DNA of 64,000 bases from Promethearchaeota archaeon (GTDB lineage: Archaea > Asgardarchaeota > Thorarchaeia > Thorarchaeales > Thorarchaeaceae): the NCBI GenBank assembly GCA_048939765.1, contig JBHLPF010000003.1, forward strand, positions 32,001 to 96,000. The letters are read 5' to 3'. The first letter of the stretch is position 1; each line of letters begins with the position of its first letter. The position numbers and the translations under genes were made by a program. The notes beneath the pieces were generated by a model. That model made no database searches and had not been told where the DNA came from. It was given only the letters and a program-made list of their open reading frames with translations. Positions 12,773 through 42,649 of this stretch are shown in pieces.

Positions 12773-12774
12773 TC

Positions 12775-13962: not shown

Positions 13963-13968
13963 CCCTCT

Positions 13969-14466: not shown

Positions 14467-14478
14467 GATAATCACCCT

Positions 14479-17050: not shown

Positions 17051-17052
17051 TG

Positions 17053-18249: not shown

Positions 18250-18351
18250 TCCAAAGGAATGTCCATTATCTCGCCTTAAGACTGTTAGGCTAGGTTCAAA
18301 AATGAAAGGACACCGGAGCACACATACAGGCACTCCGGATTGTCTATAAAA

Positions 18352-19683: not shown

Positions 19684-19690
19684 TTGGTTC

Positions 19691-20815: not shown

Positions 20816-20827
20816 TGTCTTCTCACC

Positions 20828-22282: not shown

Positions 22283-22287
22283 AATCA

Positions 22288-23484: not shown

Positions 23485-23628
23485 AGGTTGTGCACTGATG
23501 CACAGCGGCAAGCTACCCAGTAAAAAACCTTACCGGATGTTATGTATCATCAGATTTGAGTTTCATGTTCGTTTTCGAAAGTTTTGCTGTGGAATCACTT
23601 TGAGTTACCATCTGCAACCGAAATCTAC

Positions 23629-25371: not shown

Positions 25372-25474
25372 TCATAGACAGGCTTCACACCAACTTATTT
25401 GCGTATCGAAACCACCGATTGGCTAGGGCTTTGATATTGTATCTTTAAGGGGGCACATCAGAATGGAATTCAGC

Positions 25475-26716
25475 CTACTCATAGATCTCCTCTAACCCAT
25501 CCCACTCCAAGCCTAATGCCTCAGCCATTAGAACTGCAAGGTCCTTAACTACCTTACTCGATCCTGCTTGAGGCAGTTGATCATGCATGAAGTCAACACA
25601 TGAAGGGCAAGATGCAGCAACTACTGAAGCACTTGTCTGTTCAATATCGTCCACTTTCAACTTGCTGATCCGGTTGGCAAACTCGGCGTCAATAGCTCGT
25701 AGCACACCGCCCGACCCGCAGCAGAAACAGTTGCTCTTGTTATGCGGCAGCTCCTCGAAAGTCACCCCAGGCAGGTACTCCAAGACCTTTCTAGGCTGTT
25801 CATAGAAACCTGAGTTCCTTCCCGCGTCGCAGCCGTCATGAAATGTCACAGTAATGTCTAGAGGATTGGTGAATTCCAACTTGTTGGCATCAATAAGCTC
25901 CTCAAAATACTCCGGTCCGTAGATGATTTCGAATGGCGGGTCAATGCCAAGGAACTCGTGATATTCATGGGCCCACATCTTATAGCAGCCCGGGCAATTT
26001 GTCATAACTCGTTCCACCCCGAGTTCCTTGTATTTCTCAATATTATGCTCAGCAAATTGACGAGCGGTCTCGAAGTCGCCTGTCATGATCATAGGCGCTC
26101 CACAACAGACTTCATCTTCACCAAGAAATGTGTACGACTCGCCAGCTTTGTCCATGATCAGAGTGGTGGCAATTGTTGCCTGAATGGAGACTCCACGGAA
26201 TGAGGAGGCACACCCGAAGAAGAATGCAGTCTTTGCCTCTTGGCCCATTGTATCTAAAAGGGCGTCTTCATCTGGATGCCAATACGACCATCCCTCGACT
26301 CTATCCATCTGTGACTGTCCCTGAATGTTCTGGCTGTCAAGTAGGGTCTTCTTTGCCATCTCAAGTTGCTCAGGCCAGAGACCCATCTTCTGGAAGTCTG
26401 ACCTCATCAGTTGGTAAATCTGAACAAAAGGAATGTCCACCTGGCAAATCTCTTCGCATCCTCCACAGAGAGTACATCCGAAAACCGCGTCGCGAAGACC
26501 CTCTAGACCTTCCGACGCCTTCAGGCTTCCCTGGGCCAATGAACGGGCAATGATCATCTTCCCTTTTCCTGAGTAGCTATCTCGGCGCTTCACCTTGTAG
26601 GTCGGACAGGCGCCATGGCCAACTTGGCAGAAGCTACATTGCGCACAAGTATATGGCATATCTTGAAGGTTATGCTTCTTCAGTGATGGGAATTCCATGA
26701 TGTCATTCACAACCAT
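25475..26716 (-). CDS. Fe-S oxidoreductase, 2x[4Fe-4S] plus CCG domains, module E (divergent from the FAD-NuoB fusion)
   Basis: CAQCSFCQVGHGACP, CTLCGGCEEIC, CCG, CPGC, HDGC, CCGSGG, CPSC. Confidence 0.9.
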   Translation of the reverse strand: MVVNDIMEFPSLKKHNLQDMPYTCAQCSFCQVGHGACPTYKVKRRDSYSGKGKMIIARSLAQGSLKASEGLEGLRDAVFGCTLCGGCEEICQVDIPFVQIYQLMRSDFQKMGLWPEQLEMAKKTLLDSQNIQGQSQMDRVEGWSYWHPDEDALLDTMGQEAKTAFFFGCASSFRGVSIQATIATTLIMDKAGESYTFLGEDEVCCGAPMIMTGDFETARQFAEHNIEKYKELGVERVMTNCPGCYKMWAHEYHEFLGIDPPFEIIYGPEYFEELIDANKLEFTNPLDITVTFHDGCDAGRNSGFYEQPRKVLEYLPGVTFEELPHNKSNCFCCGSGGVLRAIDAEFANRISKLKVDDIEQTSASVVAASCPSCVDFMHDQLPQAGSSKVVKDLAVLMAEALGLEWDGLEEIYE

Positions 26717-26935
26717 CGGGACACGTGGCTCGACATGTTTTGCCGAACGAGTTATGCCCTGCAACAGCCCTTAATATCTGTGCTCGTTGCACAATGGCAT
26801 AGCTTTCGTCACACTTTAAAACTTGTTAGGTAAGTTGTGTCAAACGCCATTCCCTCCCTCTCTCGCTAGGTTTTTATGGAGCATGATTCCACGACCGTGA
26901 CCTGAGAGCAGCTTCATCTCTTGGAGAGAGTCCAC

Positions 26936-28876
26936 ATGACACTGAAGCCAAAGCTAGTGACGGAACTCGCTGAGGTCTATGAAGACCGAGTGATCACAGA
27001 GAAGCATGAGCTCGTCATCCATGGCATGGATGTTGGTTCTTTGCCCAAACAAGTGGGCTGGTTAATGAACGTCAAGCCTGATGCGATTGTGCAGCCTCAA
27101 ACCCCTGAAGAGATCAGGTTCCTGTACGAGTTTGCAAACAAGTACAAGGTTCCTCTAATACCAAGGGGGGCAGGCACTTCGGGCTATGGTGGTGCAATTC
27201 CTCGAAAGGGAGGCATCATTGTTGACATGCGTGTTATGGACAAGATCGTTGACATCGATGAAGAGAATCTGACTGTCACTGTTGAGCCCGGACTCTCATG
27301 GGCGAATCTGCAATTTGAGCTGAACCGAAAGAACCTAGACCTCCGTTGTTATCCCTCTTCTGGACTCTCTGCAACAATCGGGGGCTGGGTGGCCCAGGGC
27401 GGCGATGGAATTGGGTCTCTCAAGTATGGGAACATCAACAAGAACGTGGTTGCTTTCGAGGTGGTCTTGCCAACTGGAAAGATGATCAAGAGCAAGGACT
27501 GTGACCTGTTCTGTGACACAGAGGGCATTCTTGGAATCATCACTAAGGTGACTCTGAAGATAAAGCCCTTCACTCCTATCAAGGTCATTGTTTCGAGCTT
27601 CCCTGAGAATTATCTGATGGTTCATGCTATAGAGAAGATACTCGAAGATGGTCCTCTTCCATTCACGATAAAGTTCGAAGAAGCAAAGTACACAGACCTG
27701 AAGAAGAAGATCTGGGACAGTGAGGAGAAGTTCCCATTCCCGGTTCATCACTGCACGATTATGGTTGCATATGACGGAGATGAGGAGGAGATTGCAGAGG
27801 GCTTCAGAGTTGTAGAAGAAGTCACAAAGATGTACAAGGGAACTGTTTATGATGAGCATGTGTCTACCCACGAATGGAGTGACCGCTTCTACCCAATGAG
27901 AGTCAAGAAAGCTGGTCCTACCCTCGTTGTTGGCCAAGCATTTGCACCGCTTGAGAACCTAACCGCAATACTTGATGACTGGCAATTTGAACAGGGATCC
28001 GCTAAAGCTGGTATTGATGGCTACGTAAACTCTTTGAATGCTGTCACCATGATGGGCTATTTCCTCGAAGATGAACGGCGCAGATTCTTCATGTTATCCT
28101 GGGCTCAGAGCTTTGTTGTGTTCAAGATTGCACAGCGGCATGGCGGTCATGCTCACTCGACAGGAATCTGGTTCGCCAACCTGGCCGGTCAATACTTTGG
28201 TGCACAGCGACTGGCAAAGATACGTGCAGCCAAGCTTAAGTACGACAAGAAGGAGATATCAAATCCTGGGAAGGTGTTCGCCTATTGGCTACCACTTATT
28301 CTCAAGTTTGGTAAGTATTTCCTCTGGATATTCTATGACCTATTCAGGAATGGGTTTGGCAGGATTGCTCCAATACTTCTGAAGTGGCTCCAGAACCTGC
28401 CGCCACTCAAGTGGGTGCTGCGATGGGGCCGAGCACATAGTCCATGGCCAGTGCAATACGGATTAGGATGTTGCATGGTCGATGGTGCCGCTGGAATCGC
28501 GTCGAGGTGGGACTTTGAACGATTCGGGATGCTCCCCCTCTTTGGCCCGCGGCAGTGTGATGTGCTATGGATATCTGGGTCTCTTACCAAGAAGATGGCT
28601 CCGCGACTGCGAAGAGTCTACGAGATGATGCCAGATCCCAAGTTCGTTATCGCCTTCGGACAGTGCGCGGCCAGTGGCGGCGTCTTTTGGGACGGATACT
28701 CGCTACAGGTTCCGCCTGAGTCTGTAGTACCTGTCGACGTCTATTTGCCCGGGTGTCCTCCGAAGCCTTCAGACTTCGTCAGGGCTCATCTGATACTCCA
28801 GAACAAGATTCGTGCAGGCACGACACACTGGCAAATGAAGTATGAAAACCAGGACGCAATGGGGATGATCCAATGA
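26936..28876 (+). CDS. nuoB: Fusion of a GlcD/VAO-family FAD oxidoreductase and complex I subunit NuoB
   Basis: N-terminal PRGAGTSGYGG, YPSS..ATIGGW, NPGK; C-terminal WP..GLGCC, ERFG, PRQCD..SG, LRRVYEMMPDPK.VIAFGQCAASGG, PVDVYLPGCPP. Confidence 0.93.
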   Translation: MTLKPKLVTELAEVYEDRVITEKHELVIHGMDVGSLPKQVGWLMNVKPDAIVQPQTPEEIRFLYEFANKYKVPLIPRGAGTSGYGGAIPRKGGIIVDMRVMDKIVDIDEENLTVTVEPGLSWANLQFELNRKNLDLRCYPSSGLSATIGGWVAQGGDGIGSLKYGNINKNVVAFEVVLPTGKMIKSKDCDLFCDTEGILGIITKVTLKIKPFTPIKVIVSSFPENYLMVHAIEKILEDGPLPFTIKFEEAKYTDLKKKIWDSEEKFPFPVHHCTIMVAYDGDEEEIAEGFRVVEEVTKMYKGTVYDEHVSTHEWSDRFYPMRVKKAGPTLVVGQAFAPLENLTAILDDWQFEQGSAKAGIDGYVNSLNAVTMMGYFLEDERRRFFMLSWAQSFVVFKIAQRHGGHAHSTGIWFANLAGQYFGAQRLAKIRAAKLKYDKKEISNPGKVFAYWLPLILKFGKYFLWIFYDLFRNGFGRIAPILLKWLQNLPPLKWVLRWGRAHSPWPVQYGLGCCMVDGAAGIASRWDFERFGMLPLFGPRQCDVLWISGSLTKKMAPRLRRVYEMMPDPKFVIAFGQCAASGGVFWDGYSLQVPPESVVPVDVYLPGCPPKPSDFVRAHLILQNKIRAGTTHWQMKYENQDAMGMIQ

Positions 28877-29418
28877 AATTGCGAGAAGACAGCGATCAGT
28901 ACTGCATGCTGCTGATCGGCACAATCATCCTAAGTGCCTATGTCTTTGACATCTTGCTGGCTGTTGTCGCTGATACAGCGATGGCTCTTCACTTTCCGTT
29001 CCTGGTCGGTGGGCCTCTGATCATGGTGTTCTTTCTAATTGGCTACTTCAGGCCAAAGCGCGGCAGGATCAAGGTCAATATGCTCTCTATTGCAATTGTG
29101 ATAGGTGTTCTCTACACAATCTATGTCTTGGTACCATTTGGCGGTGATATCATCTATGCGTCCTGGGGAATGGGAGGCGCAATCCTCCTGGCTGGCGGTT
29201 TCTCAATGTTGGACCCGATGGAGGTCAGTGTGACCCCCGGAATCATGGAGGTCAGCGACTTCAAGTACAAGCCCTTGCCAGAGCCTGAGCCCGAGCCAGA
29301 ACCCGAGGAGGCGGCTGAGGCTGAATCAGAAACGGAAGCCGCCCCTGACACCTCAACTTCAGAAGAGCCAGCTCAAACGGAATCAACTGAAACTACTGAT
29401 GAAACTCCATCAGAATAG
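28873..29418 (+). CDS. Hypothetical 4-TM protein with acidic PE-rich tail
   Basis: ATGA overlap with the fusion gene; four hydrophobic segments; PEPEPEPEP tail. Confidence 0.7.
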   Translation: MKLREDSDQYCMLLIGTIILSAYVFDILLAVVADTAMALHFPFLVGGPLIMVFFLIGYFRPKRGRIKVNMLSIAIVIGVLYTIYVLVPFGGDIIYASWGMGGAILLAGGFSMLDPMEVSVTPGIMEVSDFKYKPLPEPEPEPEPEEAAEAESETEAAPDTSTSEEPAQTESTETTDETPSE

Positions 29419-29513: not shown

Positions 29514-29873
29514 TCATTCACGAAGCCAAGCAAACGCAGCAAACGCCAGGAGCAAACCGAAGGCAACCCATGCAAAGAGGAGAATACCTGCTAGGTCAGT
29601 GTACTGGGTGATGTCCAAATATGCGTGCACACCACCAAAGACTCCAGCAGCCATCGTGGCACCTATGCGGCCACTGCGGGTTGATGCGAATGCAATACCA
29701 AGAGTCGCTACTACGAAGAACAGCCCACTCAAGAAGATGAAGTATTGGAAGGTGAGATCAATCGGTGCTACAGTCAAGATGATCCAGAAGTATGCCCCAA
29801 TGAATCCCATTCCGATTAGAAGCGCGAGGTAATAGAAGAATGTACCCTCTTCTTTGTAAGACAATTGTATCAC
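29514..29873 (-). CDS. Hypothetical 4-TM membrane protein
   Basis: Four hydrophobic helices; GGTG upstream; fills the intergenic gap. Confidence 0.65.
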   Translation of the reverse strand: MIQLSYKEEGTFFYYLALLIGMGFIGAYFWIILTVAPIDLTFQYFIFLSGLFFVVATLGIAFASTRSGRIGATMAAGVFGGVHAYLDITQYTDLAGILLFAWVAFGLLLAFAAFAWLRE

Positions 29874-30206: not shown

Positions 30207-30665
30207 TTGCAGACAGATAGGCTGTTTCTCCAATTCATCCCGGTCTTGGTTTGGGCTATTCTTGTAATCGTTCTGATTGTTATCATGCTGTTGGCATCCT
30301 GGGTGCTGCGACCCCATATACTCCAGAACTCAGAGAAGACTTCTACATACGAATGTGGAGAAGAGCCTATTGGGCCAGCACGAATGTCATTCCCCTATAG
30401 CTACATCATCTACACGATTCTCTTTGTCATCATAGACGTAATGGGCGCATTTCTCTGGCTACTTACTGTTTCACCGCTACGATTGAATCCCATAGTCGCT
30501 TGGCAGACGTTCATCTTCGTCGTGATTATTATGGGTGCAATTGGATATGCGCTGAGGTATCTGCCTCAGACTTCGTTTAATGGTAAGGAAATCCTCGAGG
30601 CATATCGCGCTGCAAAGGCAAAGCGTCTCGAGAAAGCGCACGCATCGGGGAGGGAGCATCATTGA
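30207..30665 (+). CDS. nuoA: Complex I-like subunit A
   Basis: 3 TM, EKTSTYECGEEP, ILFVIIDV. Confidence 0.92.
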   Translation: MQTDRLFLQFIPVLVWAILVIVLIVIMLLASWVLRPHILQNSEKTSTYECGEEPIGPARMSFPYSYIIYTILFVIIDVMGAFLWLLTVSPLRLNPIVAWQTFIFVVIIMGAIGYALRYLPQTSFNGKEILEAYRAAKAKRLEKAHASGREHH

Positions 30666-31333
30666 TGCAAGGATTTGAGTCCGCGTTCGAGTCAGTTGAG
30701 TTTCTGTTGATTGCAGGAATAGTCATTGTACTGGCTTACCTCGCACTGGAACATAGGGAGATTGTGTATGCCGCATTCTTTTTTGGCTTCATGGCGTCGT
30801 TCGTAGCTGGATTCTTCCTTCTATTGGAAGCGCCTTTTGTTGCCGGTATGCAGATTGCGGTGTACACTGGAGGCATAAGTGCGTTAATCATATTCGGCGT
30901 TCTCCTGTTGCCACGAGCACAAGACTCCACACTCGAGGCAATAGAGTCGCCCCACGCCAAGAAAGTTGGCATACTTGTATCCGGCTCCATAATGTTCCTC
31001 TCTGCAATTCTTGCACTGACGTTCCCATGGAACGAAACGATTCCAGAGAGCACAATCGATTCTTCAAACAACGTGGCTCTTCTCGCTGAGTGGTTGTGGG
31101 GAGATCATGGAATCTATGTTCAACTCATCGCACTCATCATTGTGACATCCCTCGTAGGTGTCATCGCGCTCATGAAGATGGATAAGGCAGAGCTGATGAA
31201 AGATGTCGTCGCCGAGTTCGGTATCGAAGCAGCACCAGAACCTGAAGCGCCTGAGCCGGAAGAACCTCCGGAGCCTGAGGAGACCTCTGAGGAAGCTTCT
31301 GAGTCGGAAGTCAGTGAGGAGGTGGCCGACTAA
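30665..31333 (+). CDS. nuoJ: Complex I-like subunit J with acidic tail
   Basis: LEAPFVAGMQIAVYTGGISALIIFGVLL. Confidence 0.9.
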   Translation: MQGFESAFESVEFLLIAGIVIVLAYLALEHREIVYAAFFFGFMASFVAGFFLLLEAPFVAGMQIAVYTGGISALIIFGVLLLPRAQDSTLEAIESPHAKKVGILVSGSIMFLSAILALTFPWNETIPESTIDSSNNVALLAEWLWGDHGIYVQLIALIIVTSLVGVIALMKMDKAELMKDVVAEFGIEAAPEPEAPEPEEPPEPEETSEEASESEVSEEVAD

Positions 31334-31653
31334 TGGTCCCGCTTTCTTGGTATCTTGCTGTTGCATTCATCTTGATAGGCCTTGGTGCCTATGGGATGAT
31401 GGTGAAGAGGAACCTCATCAGAATTCTCATTGGTGCTGAAATCATGGGGAATGGAGTCAGCATCGCTATAGCTGCTTTTGCAGTCTACAGCCCTACCTTT
31501 ACGCTGACAGGACAGGCTCTCATTATTCTCTTGATATCAGTTGCTGCAGCTCACACTGCTCTAGCTCTAGTCTTGATGCTTGCTTACAACAGGCGACATG
31601 GAACAGTGGATCTTGGAAGACCAATCTCACAGGAGGAGAAGCTGGATGTCTGA
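31333..31653 (+). CDS. nuoK: Complex I-like subunit K
   Basis: RNLIRILIGAEIM, VAAAHTALAL, 3 TM. Confidence 0.9.
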   Translation: MVPLSWYLAVAFILIGLGAYGMMVKRNLIRILIGAEIMGNGVSIAIAAFAVYSPTFTLTGQALIILLISVAAAHTALALVLMLAYNRRHGTVDLGRPISQEEKLDV

Positions 31654-32173
31654 AGGTACTCCTATGTCTGCAGCCACATTTGGAAGACAGATTGTCAACA
31701 AGTTTCCTGGCGTTGAATGTACGCCAAAGGAAGATGGTATCCTTGAGTGCATTGTGCCAGCAGACAGGATTAGGGACGTTGTCGGGATGATTGACGAACA
31801 GATAGAAGATGCCTTTCCAGAGAGCGTCTTTGGAGTTGACCTTCAGGAAGACAAGTATGAAGTCATCTACATATTCTGGTCTCGAACCAATAGGACACTG
31901 TATCACCTTCGTGTTTCACTTGAGGGCACCAATCCCGAGGTGGACACAGTGTGTGACATATTCCCCGGCATGGAGTGGCATGAGAGAGAGACCTGGGAGA
32001 TGTTTGGAATCAACTTCAAGGGCCATCCTGACCTCAGGCTACTTTTGCTTCCTGAGGAGCTGGAAGGGAAGTATCCTCTTAGAAAGAGCTTCGTGACAGA
32101 TAGATCACGGCTCAATGAGGCTGATAAAACGCCTCCAAAGCCCAAGCCACCAGAAGGAGGTGCAACCGAATGA
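31646..32173 (+). CDS. nuoC: Complex I-like subunit C
   Basis: WHERETWEMFGINFKGHPDLR..YPLRK; AGGAGG before ATG 31646. Confidence 0.92.
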   Translation: MSEGTPMSAATFGRQIVNKFPGVECTPKEDGILECIVPADRIRDVVGMIDEQIEDAFPESVFGVDLQEDKYEVIYIFWSRTNRTLYHLRVSLEGTNPEVDTVCDIFPGMEWHERETWEMFGINFKGHPDLRLLLLPEELEGKYPLRKSFVTDRSRLNEADKTPPKPKPPEGGATE

Positions 32174-33306
32174 GCCCTGACATCATAGATGAAACAACTG
32201 AAGTCTGGTTTGGGCCACAGCACGTATCCGCGCACGGATGGGCGGCCAAACTGACTCTTGTTGGAGACTTTGTAGTGGAATGTGATCCGAACGCCGGATA
32301 CTTCCATAGATCTGCTGAGAAGTGCTTGGAGTTCCGGAACTTCCAGCAAGGGTCTCTCATCATGGAACGGCTCTGCATGCTTGAGGCATTTCTAGCTGAA
32401 TATCCCTACATCATGGCGGTTGAGAAGATAGCAGGGCTCGAAGTACCTGAACGAGCCAAGGTCATACGTACGATTATGATGGAGGCCAGCCGAATTCATT
32501 CATTGCAGTTCTGGTGGGGTCAATTCTCGGCTGAGCTCGGCTTATTCGCTATGTTGCTGTGGCCGTGGGTTGACCGTGAGTTCTTCCTCGACACTTTCGA
32601 GGAGCTCAGCGGTTCTCGTCATGCTGTTTCTTTCAGCACTCCTGGAGGAATAAGATATGATTTCACTGACAAGGTGCTCAGGAAGCTCGATATTGCCTTG
32701 GAGCGGTTTGAGGATCGGATGCCTATGATGCGAGACATGCTCATGGGTAGTCCTACTTTCAGAGCAAGGACAGAGGGCATTGGTCAGTATACGCTGAAAC
32801 AGGGGCTGAAGTACGGCTTGAGTGGACCACCGATTAAAGCATGTGGTCTACCAATGGACCTACGAAAAGATGCCCCTGACCCGAATCTAGCCTACGATAT
32901 GATCGATTGGGAAGTTCCAATTACAGAGAGCAAGGAGCATCCTGGGGAGAGTGATGCCTACGATAGGATGGTCCAGCGATTCAAAGAGATGGAGACCTCA
33001 GCAGATATAATTCGAAAACTCATTCCATTAATTCCTGAGGGCCCGATTGTTGACCCCAAGGCACGAGCCAAGGCAAACAGACTTCCAGAGGGTGAGGCAT
33101 ACGGTCGTGTCGAAGGAACAAGAGGAATCTCAACTCTCTGGCTTAAGACCACTGAAAAGGCGCAGACTCCATACAGGGCCAAGATACGCGGACCCTGTTT
33201 CAACTCTTACTACTCATTGAAACATCTGGTCCCGGGTGCGAAGTTTGCAGACTTCATTGCCATTTTTGGATCGCTTGATCCATATCCAGGGTGGTGGGAT
33301 CGCTGA
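32170..33306 (+). CDS. nuoD: Complex I-like subunit D (not a [NiFe] large subunit)
   Basis: FGPQHVSAHG, GYFHRSAEK, ERLCMLE, terminal SLDPYPGWWDR. Confidence 0.9.
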   Translation: MSPDIIDETTEVWFGPQHVSAHGWAAKLTLVGDFVVECDPNAGYFHRSAEKCLEFRNFQQGSLIMERLCMLEAFLAEYPYIMAVEKIAGLEVPERAKVIRTIMMEASRIHSLQFWWGQFSAELGLFAMLLWPWVDREFFLDTFEELSGSRHAVSFSTPGGIRYDFTDKVLRKLDIALERFEDRMPMMRDMLMGSPTFRARTEGIGQYTLKQGLKYGLSGPPIKACGLPMDLRKDAPDPNLAYDMIDWEVPITESKEHPGESDAYDRMVQRFKEMETSADIIRKLIPLIPEGPIVDPKARAKANRLPEGEAYGRVEGTRGISTLWLKTTEKAQTPYRAKIRGPCFNSYYSLKHLVPGAKFADFIAIFGSLDPYPGWWDR

Positions 33307-33317
33307 TGGGAGGTGTC

Positions 33318-34451
33318 ATGTTGCAAATAGACTTCTTCGCTTGGCTTCAAGGAATCCCTTCGTGGATCTACGGTGTGATTCAGTGGTTCTTCTACCTTGT
33401 CAGCGGGATATTCTACTGGATATGGGGGATATTCACTTGGATCTGGGCAGCTCTATTTGATGTAGCCAACTTCTTTTTCCTGATTCGAGCAATACTATTC
33501 CCGGGTCTTGTCTTCATCCTCATGACGATTATCTTCGCAGTCTGGTATACTCGCAAGCTCTGGGGTAGAATTCAAGACAGACGAGGTCCTTTCCACCTAG
33601 GGAAATACGGAGGTCTCCAGCTCTTCGCAGACGCAATCAAGCTTGTGGGGAAAGAGACTATCATTCCCGATAAGGCGAGGCGTTGGATGTACAGATTTCT
33701 TCCATCCTTGCTGCTTCTTGTCGTACTCATACCTTTCGCATTCATTCCATGGGATCCAGTATGGTACATCGCTGACCTCTCAGTCAGCCTCGTGCTTGTC
33801 TTTGCATTCTTGACAGCTGTTCCTGTAATTGCGTTGCTGTCCGGATGGATAAGCGGTTCAAAGTACACCCTAATTGGTGGGTTTAGAGCAGCTAACAATC
33901 AGTTCGCTAGCGAGATTCCGCTAATCATCTCATCCGTTGGTCCTGCGATGATTGCTGGGTCTCTTAGCGTAATGGGAATCTCGATGGCTCAGTCTAATAT
34001 CTGGTTCATCTTCCTGCTACCAATCAACTTGGCCACCTTCTTGGTCGCATCTATCGCATCCGTTGGTACATTTCCATTCGATGCCCCAGTTGCTGACTCG
34101 GAGGTCATCTTTGGTTGGAGGACTGAGTTCAGTGGTATTTACTTCACGCTCACTTATTTCGCGGAGTTCGCCGAGCAGGCGCTTTACTCAGCACTCATAG
34201 TTGCACTATTCCTTGGCGGGTTCCAAGGACCAGATTTCTTGCCAGGGAGTGTGATATTCATCATCAAGTTCCTGATCGTATTCTTCTTTTTCGTCGTTGT
34301 GACTTCATCGTTCCATCGACTTAGACAGGACCAGATTGTATACTTCTGCTGGAAGTATCTACTTCCATTGTCAATCCTGAACGTTATGCTTGTGATGTTG
34401 GGAATCGCCAACATACCCCTGCTACAAGCAATTATTGGAATAGGAGGCTAG
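33318..34451 (+). CDS. nuoH: Complex I-like subunit H
   Basis: RKLWGRIQDRRGP, GLQLFADAIKLVGKE, SKYTLIGGFRA, PFD, RLRQDQ; GGAGGTG before ATG 33318. Confidence 0.93.
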   Translation: MLQIDFFAWLQGIPSWIYGVIQWFFYLVSGIFYWIWGIFTWIWAALFDVANFFFLIRAILFPGLVFILMTIIFAVWYTRKLWGRIQDRRGPFHLGKYGGLQLFADAIKLVGKETIIPDKARRWMYRFLPSLLLLVVLIPFAFIPWDPVWYIADLSVSLVLVFAFLTAVPVIALLSGWISGSKYTLIGGFRAANNQFASEIPLIISSVGPAMIAGSLSVMGISMAQSNIWFIFLLPINLATFLVASIASVGTFPFDAPVADSEVIFGWRTEFSGIYFTLTYFAEFAEQALYSALIVALFLGGFQGPDFLPGSVIFIIKFLIVFFFFVVVTSSFHRLRQDQIVYFCWKYLLPLSILNVMLVMLGIANIPLLQAIIGIGG

Positions 34452-34457
34452 AGCAAG

Positions 34458-34889
34458 ATGGGATTCTTCAGAAACCTAGGTGACATATTCCAGATATTGA
34501 GACATATATTCCGTCAAGTGATGTCCCGTCCATTCACGTACTTCTATCCATTCGAGGACAGGGAATATCCCGAGAGGACTCGTGGCAGGCACATTCACGT
34601 GCGAGAGAATTGCACAGCCTGCATGCAGTGTGTACGAGCTTGTCCTGTTGTAGCTATTAGTATCGATAAGAGTGATAAGAAGTTCGAGAAGGACGCAGCC
34701 CTAACCTTTGATTATACAAGGTGTATCTTCTGTGGCTTATGCGTTCAAGCCTGCAGATTTGATGCACTATTTCACACCCAGGTGGTAGATATCAGCGAGG
34801 GAGAGAGGGAGGACTTGGTCTACGGTCCTGACAAGATAGAGACTCTCGATAGAGACCCGCTTGAGTGGCGTGGAAGGAGGTTCCGTTGA
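34458..34889 (+). CDS. nuoI: Complex I-like subunit I, 2x[4Fe-4S]
   Basis: TYFYPFE..RTRGRH, CTACMQCVRACP, CIFCGLCVQAC. Confidence 0.93.
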   Translation: MGFFRNLGDIFQILRHIFRQVMSRPFTYFYPFEDREYPERTRGRHIHVRENCTACMQCVRACPVVAISIDKSDKKFEKDAALTFDYTRCIFCGLCVQACRFDALFHTQVVDISEGEREDLVYGPDKIETLDRDPLEWRGRRFR

Positions 34890-36406
34890 TGCAGCTAGCA
34901 TTCGAGTTCCCATTTATGACCTTGTCCTTACTAGTCCTCTTTATCGGAGGGCTTTTGATCTACCTCTTCCGCGGTCGACTCGAAAAGACGTCTGGAAAAA
35001 TCGCAGTTGGCTTCTCGGCGGTGGGGGCATTGCTAATGGTGCCTCCATTCTACCGCATCCTGGTCGAAGGTGGTCGGGCGGCTGAGAAGGTTTCGTGGTC
35101 AGTTGTGCTCGGAGAGTTCGGTCTCTATTTGGATGAGATTGCCTTCCCAATTACGTTCGCAGTTGTTGTCTTGGGATTCCTTTCAGTCATCTATGCCGTA
35201 GGTTATACTGAGCATACTGAGAACAAGCCCACCTTCTTCGCAAACACACTATTCTTCATAATGGGCATGCAAGGAGTGACGCTTGCCACCAATTTGCTGG
35301 AGTTCTTCATTTTCTGGGAAATCATGCTTGTCCCATCATACTTCCTGATTCTGTTTTGGGGCTTGCCTGAGACCCGAAAACGAACCGCCCTCAAGTTCTG
35401 GCTCTATACACAGGCTGGAGCGGTCTGTATTCTGATCGCCCTAGGACTTTTGTACTTCTTCACAGGCACCTTTGAACTCTACACCATACTAGCAATGGCT
35501 CCTGCCATATGGTCAGACCTCCGACTATTGCAGATTATTTTCATCTTGTTCGCTGCTGGCTTTTTAGTCAAGATGGCAGCTTTCCCTGTGCATTGGTGGT
35601 TGCCTCCAGTTCACGCCGAAGCTCCGACTCCTATCTCAGTTCTGCTATCCGGAGCTATGATTGAGACTGGTGCATATGCTCTCGTCCGTTTCGGAATCAT
35701 AACGCTTGGACCTGCAGCTGCGTCTCTCTCATTCTGGATTGGAGTACTTGGTGTGGCTACGATGTTCTACGGAGGAGCTATGGCGCTCGTCCAGAAAGAC
35801 ATCAAGAGACTGCTAGCCTACTCATCGGTCTCCCAGATGGGCTACGTTTTGTTTGCACTCGGAATGATAACCACAATGGGGGTATCCGGTGGTCTATTCC
35901 ACCTCATCAATCACGCCTTCAGCAAGGGTGTCTTGTTTATGACTGCTGGAGCGGTGATTCATCAGACTCATCTAAGGGACGTCGACAAGATGGGCGGTCT
36001 CTCAAACAAGATGCCCATCACCGCATTTGCCGCGGCTATCGGCGCAATGAGCATCGCAGGGAGCCCCCCTCTCTCTGGATTCGCCAGTGAGTGGATGATG
36101 TTTCTCGGCGGCTTTGACGCCGCTCAGATGGGACCAGGAGGCCTTGCAAGACCTGAGTTCTTCTTCCTGTCCATCTTGGCTGTTTCAAGCTCCATATTGA
36201 GTGCCGGCTACATGCTCCGGTATCTCTGGAAGGTCTTTCTTGGGCCTCATCCAGCTGAACTGGAGGATGTCAAGGAGAGCTCGGACTGGATGACTGCTCC
36301 AATGATCATCCTTGGAGTTCTCATCGTGTTATTTGGAATATTCCCAGGATTGGCACTGGATGTCATAGTTCCTGGCGTAGAAGGAATATCTACCCTGCTT
36401 CCATGA
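34889..36406 (+). CDS. nuoM: Antiporter-like subunit NuoM, copy 1
   Basis: FWEIMLVPSYFLI..WG, KFWLYT, VKMAAFPVHWWLP..HAEAP, AYSSVSQMG, PPLSGFASE. Confidence 0.85.
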   Translation: MQLAFEFPFMTLSLLVLFIGGLLIYLFRGRLEKTSGKIAVGFSAVGALLMVPPFYRILVEGGRAAEKVSWSVVLGEFGLYLDEIAFPITFAVVVLGFLSVIYAVGYTEHTENKPTFFANTLFFIMGMQGVTLATNLLEFFIFWEIMLVPSYFLILFWGLPETRKRTALKFWLYTQAGAVCILIALGLLYFFTGTFELYTILAMAPAIWSDLRLLQIIFILFAAGFLVKMAAFPVHWWLPPVHAEAPTPISVLLSGAMIETGAYALVRFGIITLGPAAASLSFWIGVLGVATMFYGGAMALVQKDIKRLLAYSSVSQMGYVLFALGMITTMGVSGGLFHLINHAFSKGVLFMTAGAVIHQTHLRDVDKMGGLSNKMPITAFAAAIGAMSIAGSPPLSGFASEWMMFLGGFDAAQMGPGGLARPEFFFLSILAVSSSILSAGYMLRYLWKVFLGPHPAELEDVKESSDWMTAPMIILGVLIVLFGIFPGLALDVIVPGVEGISTLLP

Positions 36407-36411
36407 GGTGA

Positions 36412-38736
36412 TTGACAGTGTTGCTAGGACTCCCCTATTGGCTTATCCTCGTAATTCCACTGCTTGGCTCCCTCCTCGTTCCACTTGTTGGAAGGTTCAG
36501 TGAGCGTGCACGAGACTGGACTCCTGCGATCCTAATGGGAATCTCTATGGTCTTCTGCTGGTCGCTGCTGCCTGAAATCGGCCATCCTACTCAGACAACA
36601 AGCTGGATGTGGATTGAAGTTCTAGGGCTCGAATTTGAAGTGCTTCTAGATCCGCTCTCTGTTGTGATGGGCATTCTAGCCAGCACCCTCTGTTTCCTCA
36701 TCTATGTCTATTCAACCGAATATATGGCTCATGAAGGAGACCGTGACCGGTTCTTCTTCCTCATGCTTGCCTTCGGCGGCGGAATGCTCACGCTCGTGCT
36801 CAGCAACAATCTGCTGATCGCATTCATCGGATGGGAGATCATGGGATTCTGCTCCTACGGTTTGATAGGATTCTGGAATGACAAGAGGAACCCTCCCGAG
36901 ACCGACCCGACAGACATTCACTACACAAACCCACTTCTTCAATTCAAGACCGAGGGACAGTATAACACTCACTGCGGGACCAAGGCATTCGTTGTTACCC
37001 GTATCGGTGATGCATTCATGCTTGGTGGAATCCTGATTCTCTTCGTCTTCACCGGCACTTTCTCATTCACCGAGATGGCTGCTGATGCCCAATCTTGGTG
37101 GAGCACCATGGCTGGCATTGGCATGCTAGTGCCTACATTCTTGCTTATCTTCATGGGCGCTATTGGTAAGTCTGGACAGGCACCATTGCAGGTTTGGCTA
37201 CCAGAGGCTATGGCGGGTCCAACAAGCGTATCTGCTCTCATCCACGCTGCAACGATGGTCAAGGCGGGAGTCTATATCACCGCACGATTCCTAGTCACAA
37301 TGGTATCAGCAGCTGGCGGTGAGGGAAATGGAGGAGAACATATTGCTGGTCTACAGGCAATTGGCTTTGAGGCTGCACTGACGTTCTTCATCTTTGTAGC
37401 GATTATAGGCGGCATAACTGCCCTCATGACTGCGACCATGGGAATGGTCTCAAACGAGCTCAAGCAGATACTGGCGTTCTCAACACTCAGCCAGCTTGGA
37501 TACATGATGCTCTCACTAGGTGTGGGTGGCGTTCTTCAGGCCGAGGGACTTCATTTCGGTGATGCATACTTGAGTGGCGTTATGCATGTGATTTCGCATG
37601 GTGCCTTCAAGGCTCTTTTGTTCCTTGCATCAGGAGGAGTCATCCATGCTGTGCATTCGAAGTTCATTACCAAGATGGGGGGTCTCAAGCAACACATGCG
37701 TAAGACCTTCATCGTTATGTGGATTGGTGTTCTCGCTCTTGCAGGCATACCGCCGTTCTCAGGGTTCTGGTCAAAGGACTCTATCATCGAGTATGCCTAT
37801 GAGCTGGCGGTTGAATGGCCGAATCCGTTAGGTTGGATGCTATTCTTCTTTGCAGTCCTAGCAGCCGCCTGCACACTATTTTATAGCCTCCGACTCATGG
37901 GCATCACTTTCTATGGCCCTTCCAAGGAGAGTCACGACCATCACGAGTCACACGGCTCACACGAGAATGAGGAATCCGAAGAACATGAAGAGTTACATTA
38001 TGATGACCTAGATGAGCAAGAAGAATCGCATGATGATGATTCAGAGGAGCATGAAGAACCGCATGACAGCCCCTCTGAAGAGCAGGATCACTCAACTCCT
38101 CATGATCCGGGACCGGCAATGATGGTGCCATTGTATATACTAGCGGCTTTCACAATCATTGCATTCCTCGTCTTCCCATTCGTTCAGAACATTGTGCTTG
38201 AGGAGAGCCACACCTGGGCTGAGAACTTTGCTCACATGATAGAAGTCAAGCTAACCTACCCGGGCATCGTGCCGTTCATGATTACACTTGGCGCACTCGC
38301 TTTGGGTGGAATTCCTGGATATGTGATGTACATCAGGGGTGCAGACACTCCCAACACTTGGGTTCCGGAGAAAGGCTTTCGAAGGAGAGTTCATAATTTC
38401 CTCAAGCACCGATGGTACATCAACGAAATGTACTATGGATTACTAAACCGATTCCTGAGTGCTGCCGAGCGTTACCGAGTGAATGTTGACGATAAGATCA
38501 TCGATGGCATCGACTTCAAGTCCGCTGACACAGGCAAAGGCCTTGCCACCAAATTGAGGTGGTTCGATGACAATGTGGTTGACGGCTTTGCTGAGGGGGT
38601 ATCTACGTACAGTGTTGCCGCTTCAGAGTCTGGCCAATCTGCACAGACTGGTCGAGTCAATGACTACGTTGGAGTGATCATGTTCGGGATTGGGATACTT
38701 GTCATCATTGTTCTTCTGTCGCTGGGGGTGCTCTAG
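36412..38736 (+). CDS. nuoL: Antiporter-like subunit NuoL with His/acidic insert and extended lateral helix
   Basis: GWEIMGFCSY, KAFVVTRIGD, GKSGQAPLQVWLPEAMAGPT.VSALIHAATMVKAG, GFWSKD, WYINEMY..QTG. Confidence 0.93.
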   Translation: MTVLLGLPYWLILVIPLLGSLLVPLVGRFSERARDWTPAILMGISMVFCWSLLPEIGHPTQTTSWMWIEVLGLEFEVLLDPLSVVMGILASTLCFLIYVYSTEYMAHEGDRDRFFFLMLAFGGGMLTLVLSNNLLIAFIGWEIMGFCSYGLIGFWNDKRNPPETDPTDIHYTNPLLQFKTEGQYNTHCGTKAFVVTRIGDAFMLGGILILFVFTGTFSFTEMAADAQSWWSTMAGIGMLVPTFLLIFMGAIGKSGQAPLQVWLPEAMAGPTSVSALIHAATMVKAGVYITARFLVTMVSAAGGEGNGGEHIAGLQAIGFEAALTFFIFVAIIGGITALMTATMGMVSNELKQILAFSTLSQLGYMMLSLGVGGVLQAEGLHFGDAYLSGVMHVISHGAFKALLFLASGGVIHAVHSKFITKMGGLKQHMRKTFIVMWIGVLALAGIPPFSGFWSKDSIIEYAYELAVEWPNPLGWMLFFFAVLAAACTLFYSLRLMGITFYGPSKESHDHHESHGSHENEESEEHEELHYDDLDEQEESHDDDSEEHEEPHDSPSEEQDHSTPHDPGPAMMVPLYILAAFTIIAFLVFPFVQNIVLEESHTWAENFAHMIEVKLTYPGIVPFMITLGALALGGIPGYVMYIRGADTPNTWVPEKGFRRRVHNFLKHRWYINEMYYGLLNRFLSAAERYRVNVDDKIIDGIDFKSADTGKGLATKLRWFDDNVVDGFAEGVSTYSVAASESGQSAQTGRVNDYVGVIMFGIGILVIIVLLSLGVL

Positions 38737-38737
38737 A

Positions 38738-40282
38738 ATGCAGCTAGATCTCATCCAAAATCTTATCGCAATGTTGCCTATGGAAAGCATCCTCCCCTTC
38801 ATGCTTTTCCTACCACTTGTAGCAGCATTCATCGCTTACATCGTTGGAGGCAGAGGAGCTAGAGCAATTACCATTGCCATTACTTTCTTCGAGCTGTTGC
38901 TTTCAATCGTCCTTATTGTCGCCATTTTGCCTAATCCTGGAGCAATGTGGTATGAATGGACATTTACACTCAGTACAGTGCAATTCGCAAGCTGGACCGC
39001 GGTTCTTCAGATATTTCTTGGAGTCGATGGAATCTCAGTTGCTATGGTGTTCCTATCAAACCTCGTAGTCTTCATTGCGGCTCTTAGCTCAAATCATATC
39101 CACAAATCCAGGCACCTGTATTACATGTTCTTCCTGATGCTCCAGACAGGGCTGCTTGGCGTTTTCATGTCATTTGATCTTATCAGCTTCTTCATTTTCT
39201 GGGAGTTGGTCCTGATACCGATGTTCTTCATAATTGGTAGATGGGGAGAAGAGGGATGTGAACATGCAGCTGTCAAATTCTTCATCTATACACATCTTGG
39301 ATCGGCTGTGATGCTGGTCTCATTCATGGCACTGTTCTTCCTGGGACCCGGTACATTCAACATGATTGCTATCAAGGCTGCACCCATTGCAATCAACATC
39401 CAAATTGGTTTTGCTCTGGCTGTCTTTCTGGGTGCTGGCGTCAAGCTCCCAGTGTTTCCCTTGCACAACTGGCTTCCATGGGCCCACGTTAAAGCACCGA
39501 CTCCTGGTTCAGTGATACTCGCTGGGATACTCTTGAAGATGGGAGGATATGGATTCATCAGACTAGGTCTCTGGATGGTCCCGCAGGGATTTGCTCGACT
39601 CAGTATCCCATTCGCTGTCCTCGCGGTCTTCACATGCATCTATGCTGCATTCGTAGCAATGGGCCAGACTGACGTGAAGTCAATGGTCGCCTACACATCG
39701 ATAAACCACATGGCTTGGGTGTTGCTTGGAGTTGCCATTGGAGGATTTGCCATCGGTGGTGGAGCTACGGAAGGTCAGCTCTTCTCAGCTAGTCTTGCAG
39801 TTCAGGGAGCGGTTTTCATGATGGTATCTCATGGGATGATCTCCTCTGTCATGTTCATCCTCGCCGGCCAGCTGAAGTACTCAGCTGGAAGCAGATTGAT
39901 ACCTGATGTCATGGGTCTGATGACAAAGGCTCCTAGGATGTCGGCAGTCTTTATCCTCGCAGTCTTCGCAGCCTTTGGATTGCCCGGAATGAGTGGATTC
40001 ATTGCGGAAGCATTAGTGCTCTTTGGCTCTGTGAATGTCTATATCTGGTCTGGCTTCATTGCGTTCGGCATCTTTGTCACAGTGGGCTATCTCCTCTGGA
40101 CACTGAACCGAATTGTGTTTAGTGACCCTGATTCTGAGAAGGAAGTTACTGAAGCACCATGGAGTGATCTTATTGCGCCAATCTTGATGATGATACCAGT
40201 GATTATCCTTGGGCTCTGGCCAGACCTTGTCCTTAATCTAGTGATACCAATAGTCAATGACATGATAGGGGTGATTCCATGA
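38738..40282 (+). CDS. nuoM: Antiporter-like subunit NuoM, copy 2
   Basis: LGVDGIS, FWELVLIPMFFII..WG, VKLPVFPLHNWLP.AHV.AP..GSVILAGILLKMGGYG, LPG.SGFIAE. Confidence 0.92.
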   Translation: MQLDLIQNLIAMLPMESILPFMLFLPLVAAFIAYIVGGRGARAITIAITFFELLLSIVLIVAILPNPGAMWYEWTFTLSTVQFASWTAVLQIFLGVDGISVAMVFLSNLVVFIAALSSNHIHKSRHLYYMFFLMLQTGLLGVFMSFDLISFFIFWELVLIPMFFIIGRWGEEGCEHAAVKFFIYTHLGSAVMLVSFMALFFLGPGTFNMIAIKAAPIAINIQIGFALAVFLGAGVKLPVFPLHNWLPWAHVKAPTPGSVILAGILLKMGGYGFIRLGLWMVPQGFARLSIPFAVLAVFTCIYAAFVAMGQTDVKSMVAYTSINHMAWVLLGVAIGGFAIGGGATEGQLFSASLAVQGAVFMMVSHGMISSVMFILAGQLKYSAGSRLIPDVMGLMTKAPRMSAVFILAVFAAFGLPGMSGFIAEALVLFGSVNVYIWSGFIAFGIFVTVGYLLWTLNRIVFSDPDSEKEVTEAPWSDLIAPILMMIPVIILGLWPDLVLNLVIPIVNDMIGVIP

Positions 40283-41757
40283 TGCTACAATTCTCAACGA
40301 TAATCGATGCTATCAGCGACATCCTGAGTCCCTTCTTTGCACTTGTCCCGGCGGAGTGGCTGGTATCGCTGCCAGCATTGACACTTATCCTATTCGGAAT
40401 CATTGCACTTATTGTTGGAATGAGAAGAAGTCCATTGGCAGTAAGTTTCATTGGTCTATTCCTTGCGGGTCTTGAGATGATTCTCATCGACCCAGGTTCT
40501 TCATTTGGAGGGCTATTCGTAAGAGACATGTTTGGTGATTTCTTCATCTGGATCATTCTTGTTGTCGCGTTTATTATCTTGCTCTCGTCAACTACATATG
40601 GAGGAAATAGAGGCACATACAACTTTCTCCTCATGATGTCATTTGCTGGCGCAATATGGGTCGTCATGGCGACTGATCTTATTGCCCTGTATCTTGCCTG
40701 GGAATTAATGAGTACTCCAACATACATACTCGTCGCCTTAGGACCTCATCGAGGAGCCATAGACGGAGCAACGAAGTACTTCGTCATGGGACTGGTGTCT
40801 TCAGGCCTTATCGTATTTGGAATCGCACTAGTCTATGGCGCTACAGGTTATACAAGCTTTGCAGCGATAGGCACATTCGTGGCTTCTGTGTGGAGTGCCG
40901 GTTCACCTTCCGCCTATGCAATGCTTCTTGCTATGGTGCTATTCCTGATAGGCTTCGGATTCAAAGTCGGGGTGTTCCCAGGATGGATGTGGGTTCCGGA
41001 TGCATACGCCACCGCCGATGGAAGCGTTACAGGTTATCTCGCCGGCGCGACCAAAAAGACCGGTGTCAGTGCCTTGCTCAGAATACTGCTTGTAGGATTT
41101 GTTGCAGCGCAGTTGGAATGGATGCCTGTGGTTGTGACCATCTCCATCCTTACAATGGTCATTGGAAACATCCTTGCGCTCTCACAACGTAATATCATGA
41201 GAATGTTTGCTTTCTCGTCGATTATGATGATGGGCCTCCTTTTCGTGGGGATAGCTGCAGGGACTGCTTTCGGAGCAGCAGCTGCGATGTTCACTGCGTT
41301 TGCCCATGCTCTCATAAAGACAGGTGCATTCATCCTCGTCTGGGCATTAGCTGTGTCTATTGGAAAAGAAGTCACATATGAAGATCTGAAAGGGCTCAGT
41401 ACCCGTGCTCCGGTTGTGGCCCTACTAATGGCCGTTCTGGTCTTTGCGCTGGCAGGTGCTCCTTTCACAGCAGGATTCTGGTTCAAGTGGTTCCTATTGC
41501 CTGGAGCTGCGGTTGATGCCGGACTTTGGTGGTTGGCAATAATTGCTGTACTGAACTCAGTGTTCGCACTTGGCTATTATCTGAGGATTCTCAGGTATTG
41601 CTACTTCATGGAACCAACAGAAAGCACAATCCTGCGCATACCAACAATTCCTCTTGTCGCAGTGGTACTCGCAGTCGTGGGCACAATAGTAATTGGCATA
41701 TTCCCAGGTCTAATCCTAGACTATGCATCATTAGCAGCTGGAGTCCTCGTCCCATAG
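40279..41757 (+). CDS. nuoN: Antiporter-like subunit NuoN
   Basis: WELMS.P.Y.L, KYFVMG, FKVGVFP..WVPDAY, AGAPFTAGFWFK, YYLR. Confidence 0.9.
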   Translation: MMLQFSTIIDAISDILSPFFALVPAEWLVSLPALTLILFGIIALIVGMRRSPLAVSFIGLFLAGLEMILIDPGSSFGGLFVRDMFGDFFIWIILVVAFIILLSSTTYGGNRGTYNFLLMMSFAGAIWVVMATDLIALYLAWELMSTPTYILVALGPHRGAIDGATKYFVMGLVSSGLIVFGIALVYGATGYTSFAAIGTFVASVWSAGSPSAYAMLLAMVLFLIGFGFKVGVFPGWMWVPDAYATADGSVTGYLAGATKKTGVSALLRILLVGFVAAQLEWMPVVVTISILTMVIGNILALSQRNIMRMFAFSSIMMMGLLFVGIAAGTAFGAAAAMFTAFAHALIKTGAFILVWALAVSIGKEVTYEDLKGLSTRAPVVALLMAVLVFALAGAPFTAGFWFKWFLLPGAAVDAGLWWLAIIAVLNSVFALGYYLRILRYCYFMEPTESTILRIPTIPLVAVVLAVVGTIVIGIFPGLILDYASLAAGVLVP

Positions 41758-42514: not shown

Positions 42515-42649
42515 GCCAAGCTCCTTCCCGGAATATCTCTCATTGATGACTAGGTCCAGCATATAATCGCATTTCAGACATACAGATGGAAAACAGTAAC
42601 AAATCAGAAGATAATTGCGGGTCGGGAGTGACTCCATCCCCAGCGGTTT

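Follow-up and report, generated by a model that had tools for sequence, protein, structure and literature searches.

The stretch of Promethearchaeota DNA analysed here (64,000 nucleotides, positions 32,001 to 96,000 of contig JBHLPF010000003.1 in assembly GCA_048939765.1, called the window below) belongs to a member of the Thorarchaeia and carries a row of nuo genes for a complex-I-like enzyme. Its catalytic subunit is a NuoD-like protein of 378 amino acids, encoded at 32170..33306 on the + strand (PF00346, E 6.7e-58), and the start of its open reading frame overlaps the stop of nuoC. It is the sole PF00346 (Complex1_49kDa) protein of the window's genome (G000; 3.37 Mb, 88.5% complete), and its full-length homologues are all 377-382 amino acids long. 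A first-pass annotation, made from the sequence of the window, had pointed to a retained GPQH..HG pair, a first motif ERLCMLE with one Cys (at 32374) and no Tyr, and a C-terminal DPYPGWWDR without Cys, and the translation confirms all three. The His pair is located in the beta1-beta2 loop (32221..32235, +), within the N-terminal motif WFGPQHVSAHG, with His18 at 32221-32223 and His22 at 32233-32235. ERLCMLE comprises residues 66-72, with Cys69-Met70-Leu71-Glu72 at 32374..32385 (+) and the Cys69 codon at 32374-32376; Glu122, the acidic partner of the loop His, is encoded at 32533..32535 (+), and DPYPGWWDR forms the final nine residues (33277..33303, +).

The pocket equivalences were taken from an alignment of this protein with NUCM of Yarrowia lipolytica; the Thermus numbers given in brackets are those that we take to be equivalent, in part after PMC4758237. 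His18 and His22 correspond to Yarrowia H91 and H95 (Thermus H34 and H38), Arg67-Leu-Cys69-Met70-Leu-Glu72 to R141-L-D143-Y144-V-S146 (D86 and Y87), Glu122 to D196 (D139), and Asp370-Pro-Tyr372-Pro-Gly-Trp375 to D458-L-V460-F-G-E463 (D401 and V403). The position of the quinone-ligating Tyr87 of the RxDY motif is occupied by Met70, and where this protein has Glu122, canonical NuoD has Asp in 92% of the sequences and MbsL, the corresponding subunit of the sulfane reductase MBS of Pyrococcus furiosus, has Lys. When compared with the hydrogenase-type matches, the NiFe ligand positions Cys1 to Cys4 are taken by Cys69, Glu72, Tyr372 and Trp375, so that only Cys1 is left and neither RxCGxC nor DPCxxC is present; because three of the four NiFe cysteines are lost, we rejected a hydrogenase. 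Cys69 aligns with C85 of MbsL and Tyr372 with C385, two residues that lie side by side, ~12 A from the proximal cluster, in the MBS structure (PMC7684303). The walls of the pocket are rich in aromatic residues (W24, F114, W115, W116, F119, F126, W131, Y372, W375 and W376).

This set of motifs is conserved. A near-homologue search of 5.8 billion proteins yielded ~60 clusters at 74-95% identity, whose source names are Thorarchaeota, Sifarchaeia, Hermodarchaeota or Promethearchaeota, and the Thorarchaeial (Thor) clade was set by this sequence identity and not by motif, using 60 cluster representatives (74-95% to the query). His18, His22 (both in 60/60), Cys69, Glu72, Glu122 (59/59), Asp370, Tyr372 and Trp376 are invariant among them, Met70 is found in 58/60 with Leu in the other two, and Trp375 in 58/59; of all alignment columns, just 38% are invariant. 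Since the pocket residues are invariant across representatives defined by identity, the motif set is a property of the clade and not a chance event or an accident of one genome. Beyond the clade the identity falls abruptly, first to 49% and next to at most 38%. In a set of 301 genomes of the phylum, NuoD of the Thor type (at least 72% identity) is confined to the family of the window, where 55/77 genomes have it by hand count, and other Asgard families have NuoD relatives at 34-40% identity. The closest of the more distant relatives form a sister clade (P0063/P0242, genome G025; 49-51% identity) that reads RLSMLE and DAYTAEFDR and has thus kept the Tyr and lost Cys69, which is Ser. Genome G025 itself has two NuoD copies of this RLSMLE type (49-51%; L018 at G025:C31:21002-22090, and L017), one of them within a nuo operon and the other an orphan with 8 kb free of nuo genes to its left and right.

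In 1.84 billion representatives, a full HMMER scan identified 5,904 relatives at E <= 0.001, and motif classes were read from an alignment that combined the best 150 of these with the near-homologue matches. It contained 115 canonical NuoD with DRxDY, 29 four-Cys hydrogenase-type matches with RxCGxC/DPCxxC, 34 two-Cys forms, one Cys-less set and scattered Tyr-to-Phe/Trp variants. The reference motifs used in the first-pass annotation hold in these classes, as does its statement that MbsL keeps one Cys per motif, which is seen in the alignment and reported in PMC7684303. Among the aligned sequences, the combination of the His pair with Cys1, no Tyr87 and Tyr at Cys3 occurs only in the Thor clade. 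The description of the active site as neither hydrogenase nor canonical quinone reductase is correct at the motif level, and no characterised quinone-reducing NuoD or FpoD clade with this motif set was found among those compared or in PMC4758237.

By profile, the protein falls below all NCBIfam cut-offs for NuoD and FpoD, scoring 312.7 bits against a cut-off of 360 for NF004739, the best of them, 257.8 against 459 for TIGR01962 and 233.6 against 600 for NF040602 (FpoD), with Tyr87 missing. The fold is that of complex I. An AlphaFold2 (AF2) model with a predicted local distance difference test (pLDDT) score of 93.5 matches 49-kDa/NuoD chains of complex I with Z 47-48 and a root-mean-square deviation (rmsd) of 1.5-2.0 A, among them the quinone-bound NuoD 8e9h_D (Z 47.9, rmsd 1.6 A, 362 residues); the 50 best structural matches do not include MbsL, though the Z values are nearly tied. 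Quick trees were built without the motif columns (LG+G4 and posterior mean site frequency models), with reference classes assigned by motif and without named MbsL, FpoD or Sulfolobus sequences, and joined Thor and its sister clade at 100% support in the Shimodaira-Hasegawa-like approximate likelihood-ratio test. The Cys-less set (P0262, P0263, P0309, P0322 and P0343) is recovered as a separate starred clade next to the hydrogenases and away from Thor. We assume this set to be Ehr, which are reportedly hydrogenase-related complexes without NiFe ligands, as described by Marreiros in 2013. An Ehr identity was rejected for the Thor clade, which does not group with these Cys-less, His-poor large subunits.

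The partner subunits are arranged in the order nuoA-J-K-C-D-H-I, followed by four antiporter-like genes, with nuoB elsewhere and no NuoEFG. Pfam identifies nuoA, nuoJ, nuoK and nuoC at 30207..32173 (+); nuoH, which is ND1-type with the loop PFDAPVADSEVIFGWRTEFSG between transmembrane (TM) segments 5 and 6, and nuoI, with two 4Fe-4S motifs, lie at 33291..34889 (+), and the four antiporter-like subunits of 513, 774 (NuoL), 530 and 492 amino acids at 34865..41757 (+). NuoB is encoded 3.3 kb upstream of the row, at 26921..28876 (+), as part of a protein of 651 amino acids in which a flavoenzyme of the GlcD/vanillyl-alcohol-oxidase (VAO) type, covering the N-terminal 450 residues, is fused to a NuoB domain at about residues 498-635. 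The N2 ligands of this domain are complete, with the doublet Cys517-Cys518 (28469-28474), Cys582 and Cys612. The window's genome has three matches to PF01058, the NuoB family, and GlcD::NuoB is the only complex-I-type NuoB among them; because the other two adjoin true [NiFe] large subunits, the fusion must be the partner of the Thor NuoD. NuoH scores 166 bits against E. coli NuoH and 50 against MbsM, and the NuoB domain 146/144 bits against NdhK/Nqo6 and 108 against MbsJ. NuoD is the only Q-module subunit with an MBS protein as its best solved relative by sequence, and the remaining ones look clearly complex-I-type.

The fusion is kept in ~45 Thorarchaeal clusters, including that of the most divergent member, G167. 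Divergent from its gene lies a gene for an HdrD/GlcF-like CCG iron-sulfur protein (25475..26764, -), and gene context from genome-set searches, extracted loci and tblastn shows an HdrD-like gene adjoining the fusion in all five other Thor genomes examined, which represent five further genera. NuoB is free in the sister genome G025, where it is 61% identical to the fused form, and in G112 and G026, so that, given these and the other Asgard relatives inspected, the fusion is specific to the Thor clade. Its linker is amphipathic and has no TM segment by hydropathy. Where the motifs of a D-2-hydroxyacid dehydrogenase would lie, the fusion reads HSTGIWF and YDGDEEE, and we therefore call it only a flavoenzyme, and not a lactate dehydrogenase.

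Several further features of the locus were noted. A three-TM protein (28873-29418, +) is translationally coupled to the fusion gene, and together with a three-TM gene on the opposite strand (29514-29873) it is kept between the fusion and nuoA in all examined Thor loci with nuo genes. The first of these proteins and NuoJ (30662-31333, +) both end in long acidic C-terminal tails rich in Pro and Glu (PEPEPEPE...). NuoL, of 774 amino acids, has a His/Asp/Glu-rich insert at about residues 505-560, and the arrangement of four antiporter-like genes is also seen in G112, G026 and G025. Directly downstream of nuoN, a Ras/Rab-like small GTPase is encoded at 41963-42637 (-), a position that it also has in G236.

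The same window encodes candidate enzymes for the synthesis of a lipid carrier, namely a geranylgeranyl-reductase (GGR)-family gene (4419-5618, +), a polyprenyl diphosphate synthase (5625-6656, -) and a MenA-like UbiA prenyltransferase (6802-7866, +), the last with 108 bits against a cut-off of 102 for TIGR00751. Its NCBIfam matches are 1,4-dihydroxy-2-naphthoate (DHNA) prenyltransferases throughout and the TIGR00751 control was silent in Methanocaldococcus and Methanosarcina, for which reasons the archaeal lipid enzyme digeranylgeranylglyceryl phosphate (DGGGP) synthase was rejected. In four other genera (G257, G093, G167 and G179) the three genes lie beside the HdrD-like gene and GlcD::NuoB, usually also beside the nuo operon, and in G167 the block is intact though the nuo genes are 24 kb distant. 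In the window, ~17 kb of inserted GlcD-like/CCG pairs separate the prenyl block from the HdrD-like gene. The MenA-like gene is present in 65/86 genomes of the family and, by hand count, in 50/55 of those with NuoD of the Thor type, related genomes that are not independent of each other. G000 also encodes a MenG/UbiE-family methyltransferase, whose 190 bits exceed the TIGR01934 cut-off of 158. Its gene (L035, G000:C22:9883-10602, -) has a PreA-like dehydrogenase and an arsenite-methyltransferase-like gene as neighbours, and no further quinone genes were found on its 13.5-kb contig.

In the array between the prenyl block and the fusion (7877-26764, -), genes for membrane proteins, an amine-oxidase/HpnE-like gene and two PNPOx-like genes, one of which is fused to DUF7530, are interspersed among those for four GlcD-like flavin adenine dinucleotide (FAD) proteins and five CCG proteins of the HdrD/GlcF-like kind. 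The array is an expansion, since the other genera have only PNPOx/DUF7530 and one HdrD-like gene between the MenA-like gene and the fusion. In G026, of another Asgard family, CCG and GlcD-like proteins adjoin a MenA-like gene (87.8 bits, below the cut-off) in the stretches C1:1141908-1146215 (L023) and C1:1146302-1147069, and the linkage of flavoenzyme/CCG genes with a prenyltransferase thus extends beyond the Thorarchaeia. Two exported proteins of the array contain CDNTGCH (CX4CH; 22288-23511, -) and CALQAGCH (CX5CH; 14479-15186, -), and the former ends in several TM helices bearing His; free His-rich proteins with four TM segments are encoded at 10585-11079 and 13969-14475. These CXnCH and His-rich proteins may together form a heme-based membrane conduit. 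At the edge of the window (3-4553) there are genes for cytochrome c maturation, with a CcmF/NrfE-like fragment, CcmC (2197-2868), CcmB (2939-3688) and a CcmA-like ABC ATPase (3672-4553), which are unexpected in a presumed fermentative or acetogenic Asgard archaeon.

The reading that we favour, with a probability of about 0.5, is that these genes encode a 12-subunit, NuoEFG-less complex-I-like ion pump of one Thorarchaeia family, which would reduce a prenylated carrier of a non-canonical kind, in a reaction linked to ferredoxin and in a pocket that is remodelled and not vestigial. Electrons would pass, most likely from ferredoxin, through the two NuoI clusters to the complex-I-type N2 in the NuoB domain and from there to a substrate in the cavity between NuoB, NuoD and NuoH. 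This substrate is most likely a membrane-soluble, quinone-like prenylated carrier, made by the neighbouring MenA-like prenyltransferase, polyprenyl synthase and prenyl reductase together with the MenG/UbiE-type methyltransferase encoded elsewhere in the genome. His22 and Glu122 would provide one proton relay, with Asp370 retained, and Tyr372, at the former NiFe Cys3 site next to Cys69 and flanked by Trp375/Trp376, could supply the second hydrogen bond or proton in place of Tyr87. Turnover would drive the four antiporter-like subunits; running in reverse to make reduced ferredoxin would be equally compatible.

Support for a carrier comes from the complex-I-type NuoH and NuoB, the latter with the Cys-Cys doublet, whose appearance has been tied to reactivity with quinone-type carriers or methanophenazine (PMC4758237), and from the invariant His18/His22, Glu122 and Asp370, given that MbsL has no second His and Lys at the position of Glu122. 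It also comes from the superposition of the AF2 model on quinone-bound NuoD and from the presence of the MenA-like gene in most genomes with the Thor-type NuoD. The role proposed for Tyr372 is suggested by its alignment with one member of the adjacent Cys pair of MbsL and by the Tyr having been kept in the sister clade that lost Cys69. That the carrier is a lipid is supported by the conserved block of GGR, polyprenyl synthase, MenA-like, HdrD-like and GlcD::NuoB genes and by the MenA- and MenG-like scores. Because MenA- and MenG-like genes are present whereas the search for a Men or Mqn head-group pathway found none, ordinary menaquinone is probably not the carrier. The simplest description of the carrier would be a prenylated, methylated molecule with an aromatic head that is taken up from outside or built by some other route; a dependence of respiration on environmental quinone is reported for Streptococcus agalactiae (PMC6030563). 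The suggestion of the first-pass annotation that menaquinone is bound differently thus comes close to this reading, except for the identity of the molecule.

A number of observations weigh against this reading. Tyr87 is absent, though kept in essentially all quinone- or phenazine-reducing clades, and the bulky aromatic residues W24, W115, W116, F126, W131, Y372, W375 and W376 could fill the pocket and not line it. A preprint on other Asgard complexes reports models that leave quinone no way in. The MenA-like gene is also found in 10 genomes of the family without the Thor-type NuoD. Reading gene absences from metagenome-assembled genomes, we found futalosine MqnA/D in 0/86 genomes of the family and MenB in 0/41 genomes that are at least 90% complete; in G000, MqnC, ETF-QO (electron-transfer flavoprotein:quinone oxidoreductase) and quinol enzymes of the NarI/HdrE type were not found, and MenD gave no match above the cut-off. 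Finally, the free trees place Thor and its sister clade among the two-Cys (Mbx-like) lineages, outside the clade that holds NuoD (93%). The best tree forcing the two together with the NuoD core was 16.6 log-likelihood units worse and was not rejected in the approximately unbiased (AU) test (p-AU 0.26). Since this test does not exclude an affiliation with NuoD, we make no claim that the protein is not NuoD by descent. The pocket had been called intermediate in the first-pass annotation; the term is fair for the motifs and for the free trees, the latter placing Thor in a grade between the two-Cys forms of the Mbx type and NuoD, and is not meant as a demonstrated genealogy.

Other explanations have to be considered, the main rival being that the NuoD pocket is no substrate site at all. 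Electrons would then enter or leave N2 by way of the flavoenzyme fused to NuoB and the CCG protein of the HdrD-like kind, a disulfide or a soluble substrate serving as partner, and the His/Glu pair and the loops would only couple the redox state of N2 to the antiporter-like subunits. Such a bypass would fit the fusion being the sole complex-I-type NuoB of the genome and its retention across the Thorarchaeal clusters, the HdrD-like gene that always adjoins it, and the origin of fusion and Thor-type pocket in the same lineage, the sister genome G025 having free NuoB. A direct link between an Fpo-like complex and HdrD is said to have been proposed for Methanomassiliicoccales by Lang and colleagues in 2015. 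What PMC4153887 itself shows is that the genomes of this group carry hdrD but no hdrE, and an Fpo-like complex of 11 subunits. However, the bypass leaves unexplained the strict conservation of His18/His22/Glu122/Asp370/Tyr372, the ND1-type NuoH and the linkage to the MenA-like and polyprenyl synthase genes, and the amphipathic linker is not a rigid join; we consider the bypass doubtful. The first-pass annotation had also named a partner protein as the possible acceptor; the proteins that could play this part, the flavoenzyme fused to NuoB and its HdrD-like neighbour, do exist, and the idea survives in this form.

That annotation had further proposed a sulfur species as acceptor, which we disfavour. 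A sulfane-sulfur or polysulfide reductase like MBS would agree with MbsL (6u8y_L, 204 bits) outscoring the best NuoD (178 bits) as the closest match of known structure by sequence, with Cys69 as the counterpart of MbsL C85 and with the grouping of Thor with two-Cys forms in the free trees. The cysteines of MbsL are dispensable, however, and catalysis is attributed to a proximal cluster with one non-Cys Fe that results from a shortened MbsJ motif (PMC7684303), whereas NuoB here has the complex-I doublet and all four Cys. Moreover, the equivalent of H38 is missing in MBS and invariant in Thor, and the membrane arm is Nuo-type and not Mrp-type, which together make this function quite improbable. 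Membership of the MBS/MBX class was rejected on the Tyr at Cys3, the presence of the H38 equivalent, the NuoB doublet and the NuoH scores. The former NiFe pocket might also house a new cofactor site, in which Cys69, Glu72 and Tyr372 would hold a mononuclear metal or act on a small soluble substrate as a redox-active thiol or a Cys-Tyr pair; this is suggested by these three invariant residues occupying three of the four NiFe ligand positions. In hydrogenases, Cys1 and Cys3 are both Ni ligands, so that the side chains of Cys69 and Tyr372 should touch. Yet the sister clade has Ser at 69 and the same Tyr, and Cys1/Cys3 are often found in vestigial form and, in the cases tested, play no part in catalysis; we regard such a site as improbable. 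A degenerate pocket in a redox-inactive or relic complex could be imagined from the loss of Tyr87 and the lack of a canonical quinone pathway among the genes found; this is very remote, given that all subunits are intact in 55/77 genomes of the family, that the cluster ligands are complete and that the pocket residues are invariant in an alignment where most columns vary.

Going beyond the favoured carrier reduction, we tentatively raise a larger possibility, namely that the complex I family came to reduce carriers a second time, and independently, in the Thor enzyme. It would have originated in the two-Cys (Mbx-like) grade and not in NuoD, with its proton-donating Tyr on the C-terminal motif (former NiFe Cys3) in place of the first motif, and would use an undescribed Asgard prenylated carrier, with a head group from neither the Men nor the futalosine pathway, that might also link the pump to the flavoenzyme/HdrD module. 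How the quinone chemistry of complex I arose from a hydrogenase ancestor is a long-standing question that has been argued mostly on Tyr87, the His38/Asp139 pair and the NuoB doublet. As Fpo demonstrates, Tyr87 can work in the absence of the His/Asp pair; Thor offers the reverse case in nature, having both pair and doublet, no Tyr87 and a Tyr on another wall of the pocket, set in an otherwise complete 12-subunit pump that is genetically linked to genes for carrier biosynthesis. This points to a lipid carrier still to be identified in Asgard archaea, a group whose bioenergetics bear on models of how eukaryotes arose. If the pocket were bypassed instead, the enzyme would show how such pumps get rewired by a fused flavoenzyme.

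With canonical complex I NuoD/Nqo4/49-kDa (T. thermophilus 4HEA, Y. lipolytica NUCM), the Thor subunit shares the fold, the His pair of the loop, the equivalent of Asp401 and the Arg of RxDY, with Glu in place of Asp139, and the complexes have in common the NuoB Cys doublet, an ND1-type NuoH and NuoA/J/K/L/M/N. It differs in Tyr87, which is Met, Asp86, which is Cys, Val403, which is Tyr, the Glu/Asp at NiFe Cys4, which is Trp, and a deletion of one residue after HG in the beta1-beta2 loop, and the complex differs in having no NuoEFG, in NuoB being fused to a flavoenzyme and in its place outside the NuoD clade in the free trees. Like Thor, MbsL (6U8Y; PMC7684303) has kept NiFe Cys1 and has no Tyr87; unlike Thor, it has also kept Cys3, has no H38 equivalent and has Lys at D139, and it belongs to a complex whose MbsJ is without the Cys doublet and whose membrane arm is Mrp-type.

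Also similar in part are the FpoD and Fpo-like enzymes (F420H2:methanophenazine oxidoreductases), which are archaeal, of the 11-subunit type without NuoEFG, and have the Cys doublet in the B subunit and vestigial NiFe cysteines; their methanophenazine sets a precedent for a lipid carrier other than quinone (PMC4758237). In the pocket, Fpo has Tyr87 but not H38/D139 (PMC4758237) whereas Thor has H38 and an acidic residue at 139 but no Tyr87, which makes the Thor motif set the mirror image of that of Fpo. The two-Cys complex-I-like enzymes of other Asgard families (G112 and G026; P0243-type) resemble Thor in gene order, which is (A)-J-K-B-C-D-H-I followed by four antiporter-like genes, and in the NuoB doublet, with NuoD 38-40% identical, and differ in keeping both Cys1 and Cys3 (RACFLE and DVCPADLDR) and in their free NuoB. 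Ferredoxin-to-menaquinone Nuo complexes and many Dld-HdrD pairs have been proposed for Sifarchaeia and Jordarchaeia, with the pocket unexamined (Sun et al. 2021, PMC9723677), and the Thorarchaeal complex is not discussed in the searchable text of a 2024 preprint on complex-I-like enzymes of Asgard archaea. A literature search that reached few subscription journals found no earlier description of the Thorarchaeal motif set or pocket. NuoD forms without Tyr87 from Sulfolobus, Nautiliales and Desulfurobacteriales belong to Nuo11-type operons, lack H38 and D139 as well and have been read as pre-quinone forms (Degli Esposti 2015, PMC4758237); some of them keep Cys1 and Cys3, whereas Thor keeps H38 and the acidic 139 and adds a Tyr at Cys3. 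Vestigial Cys1/Cys3 have likewise been described in Mbx, Fpo and 'ancestral' Nuo complexes (Degli Esposti 2015, PMC4758237). Both the loss of Tyr87 and the vestigial cysteines are thus already known from other lineages, and the Thor set adds one more variant to them.

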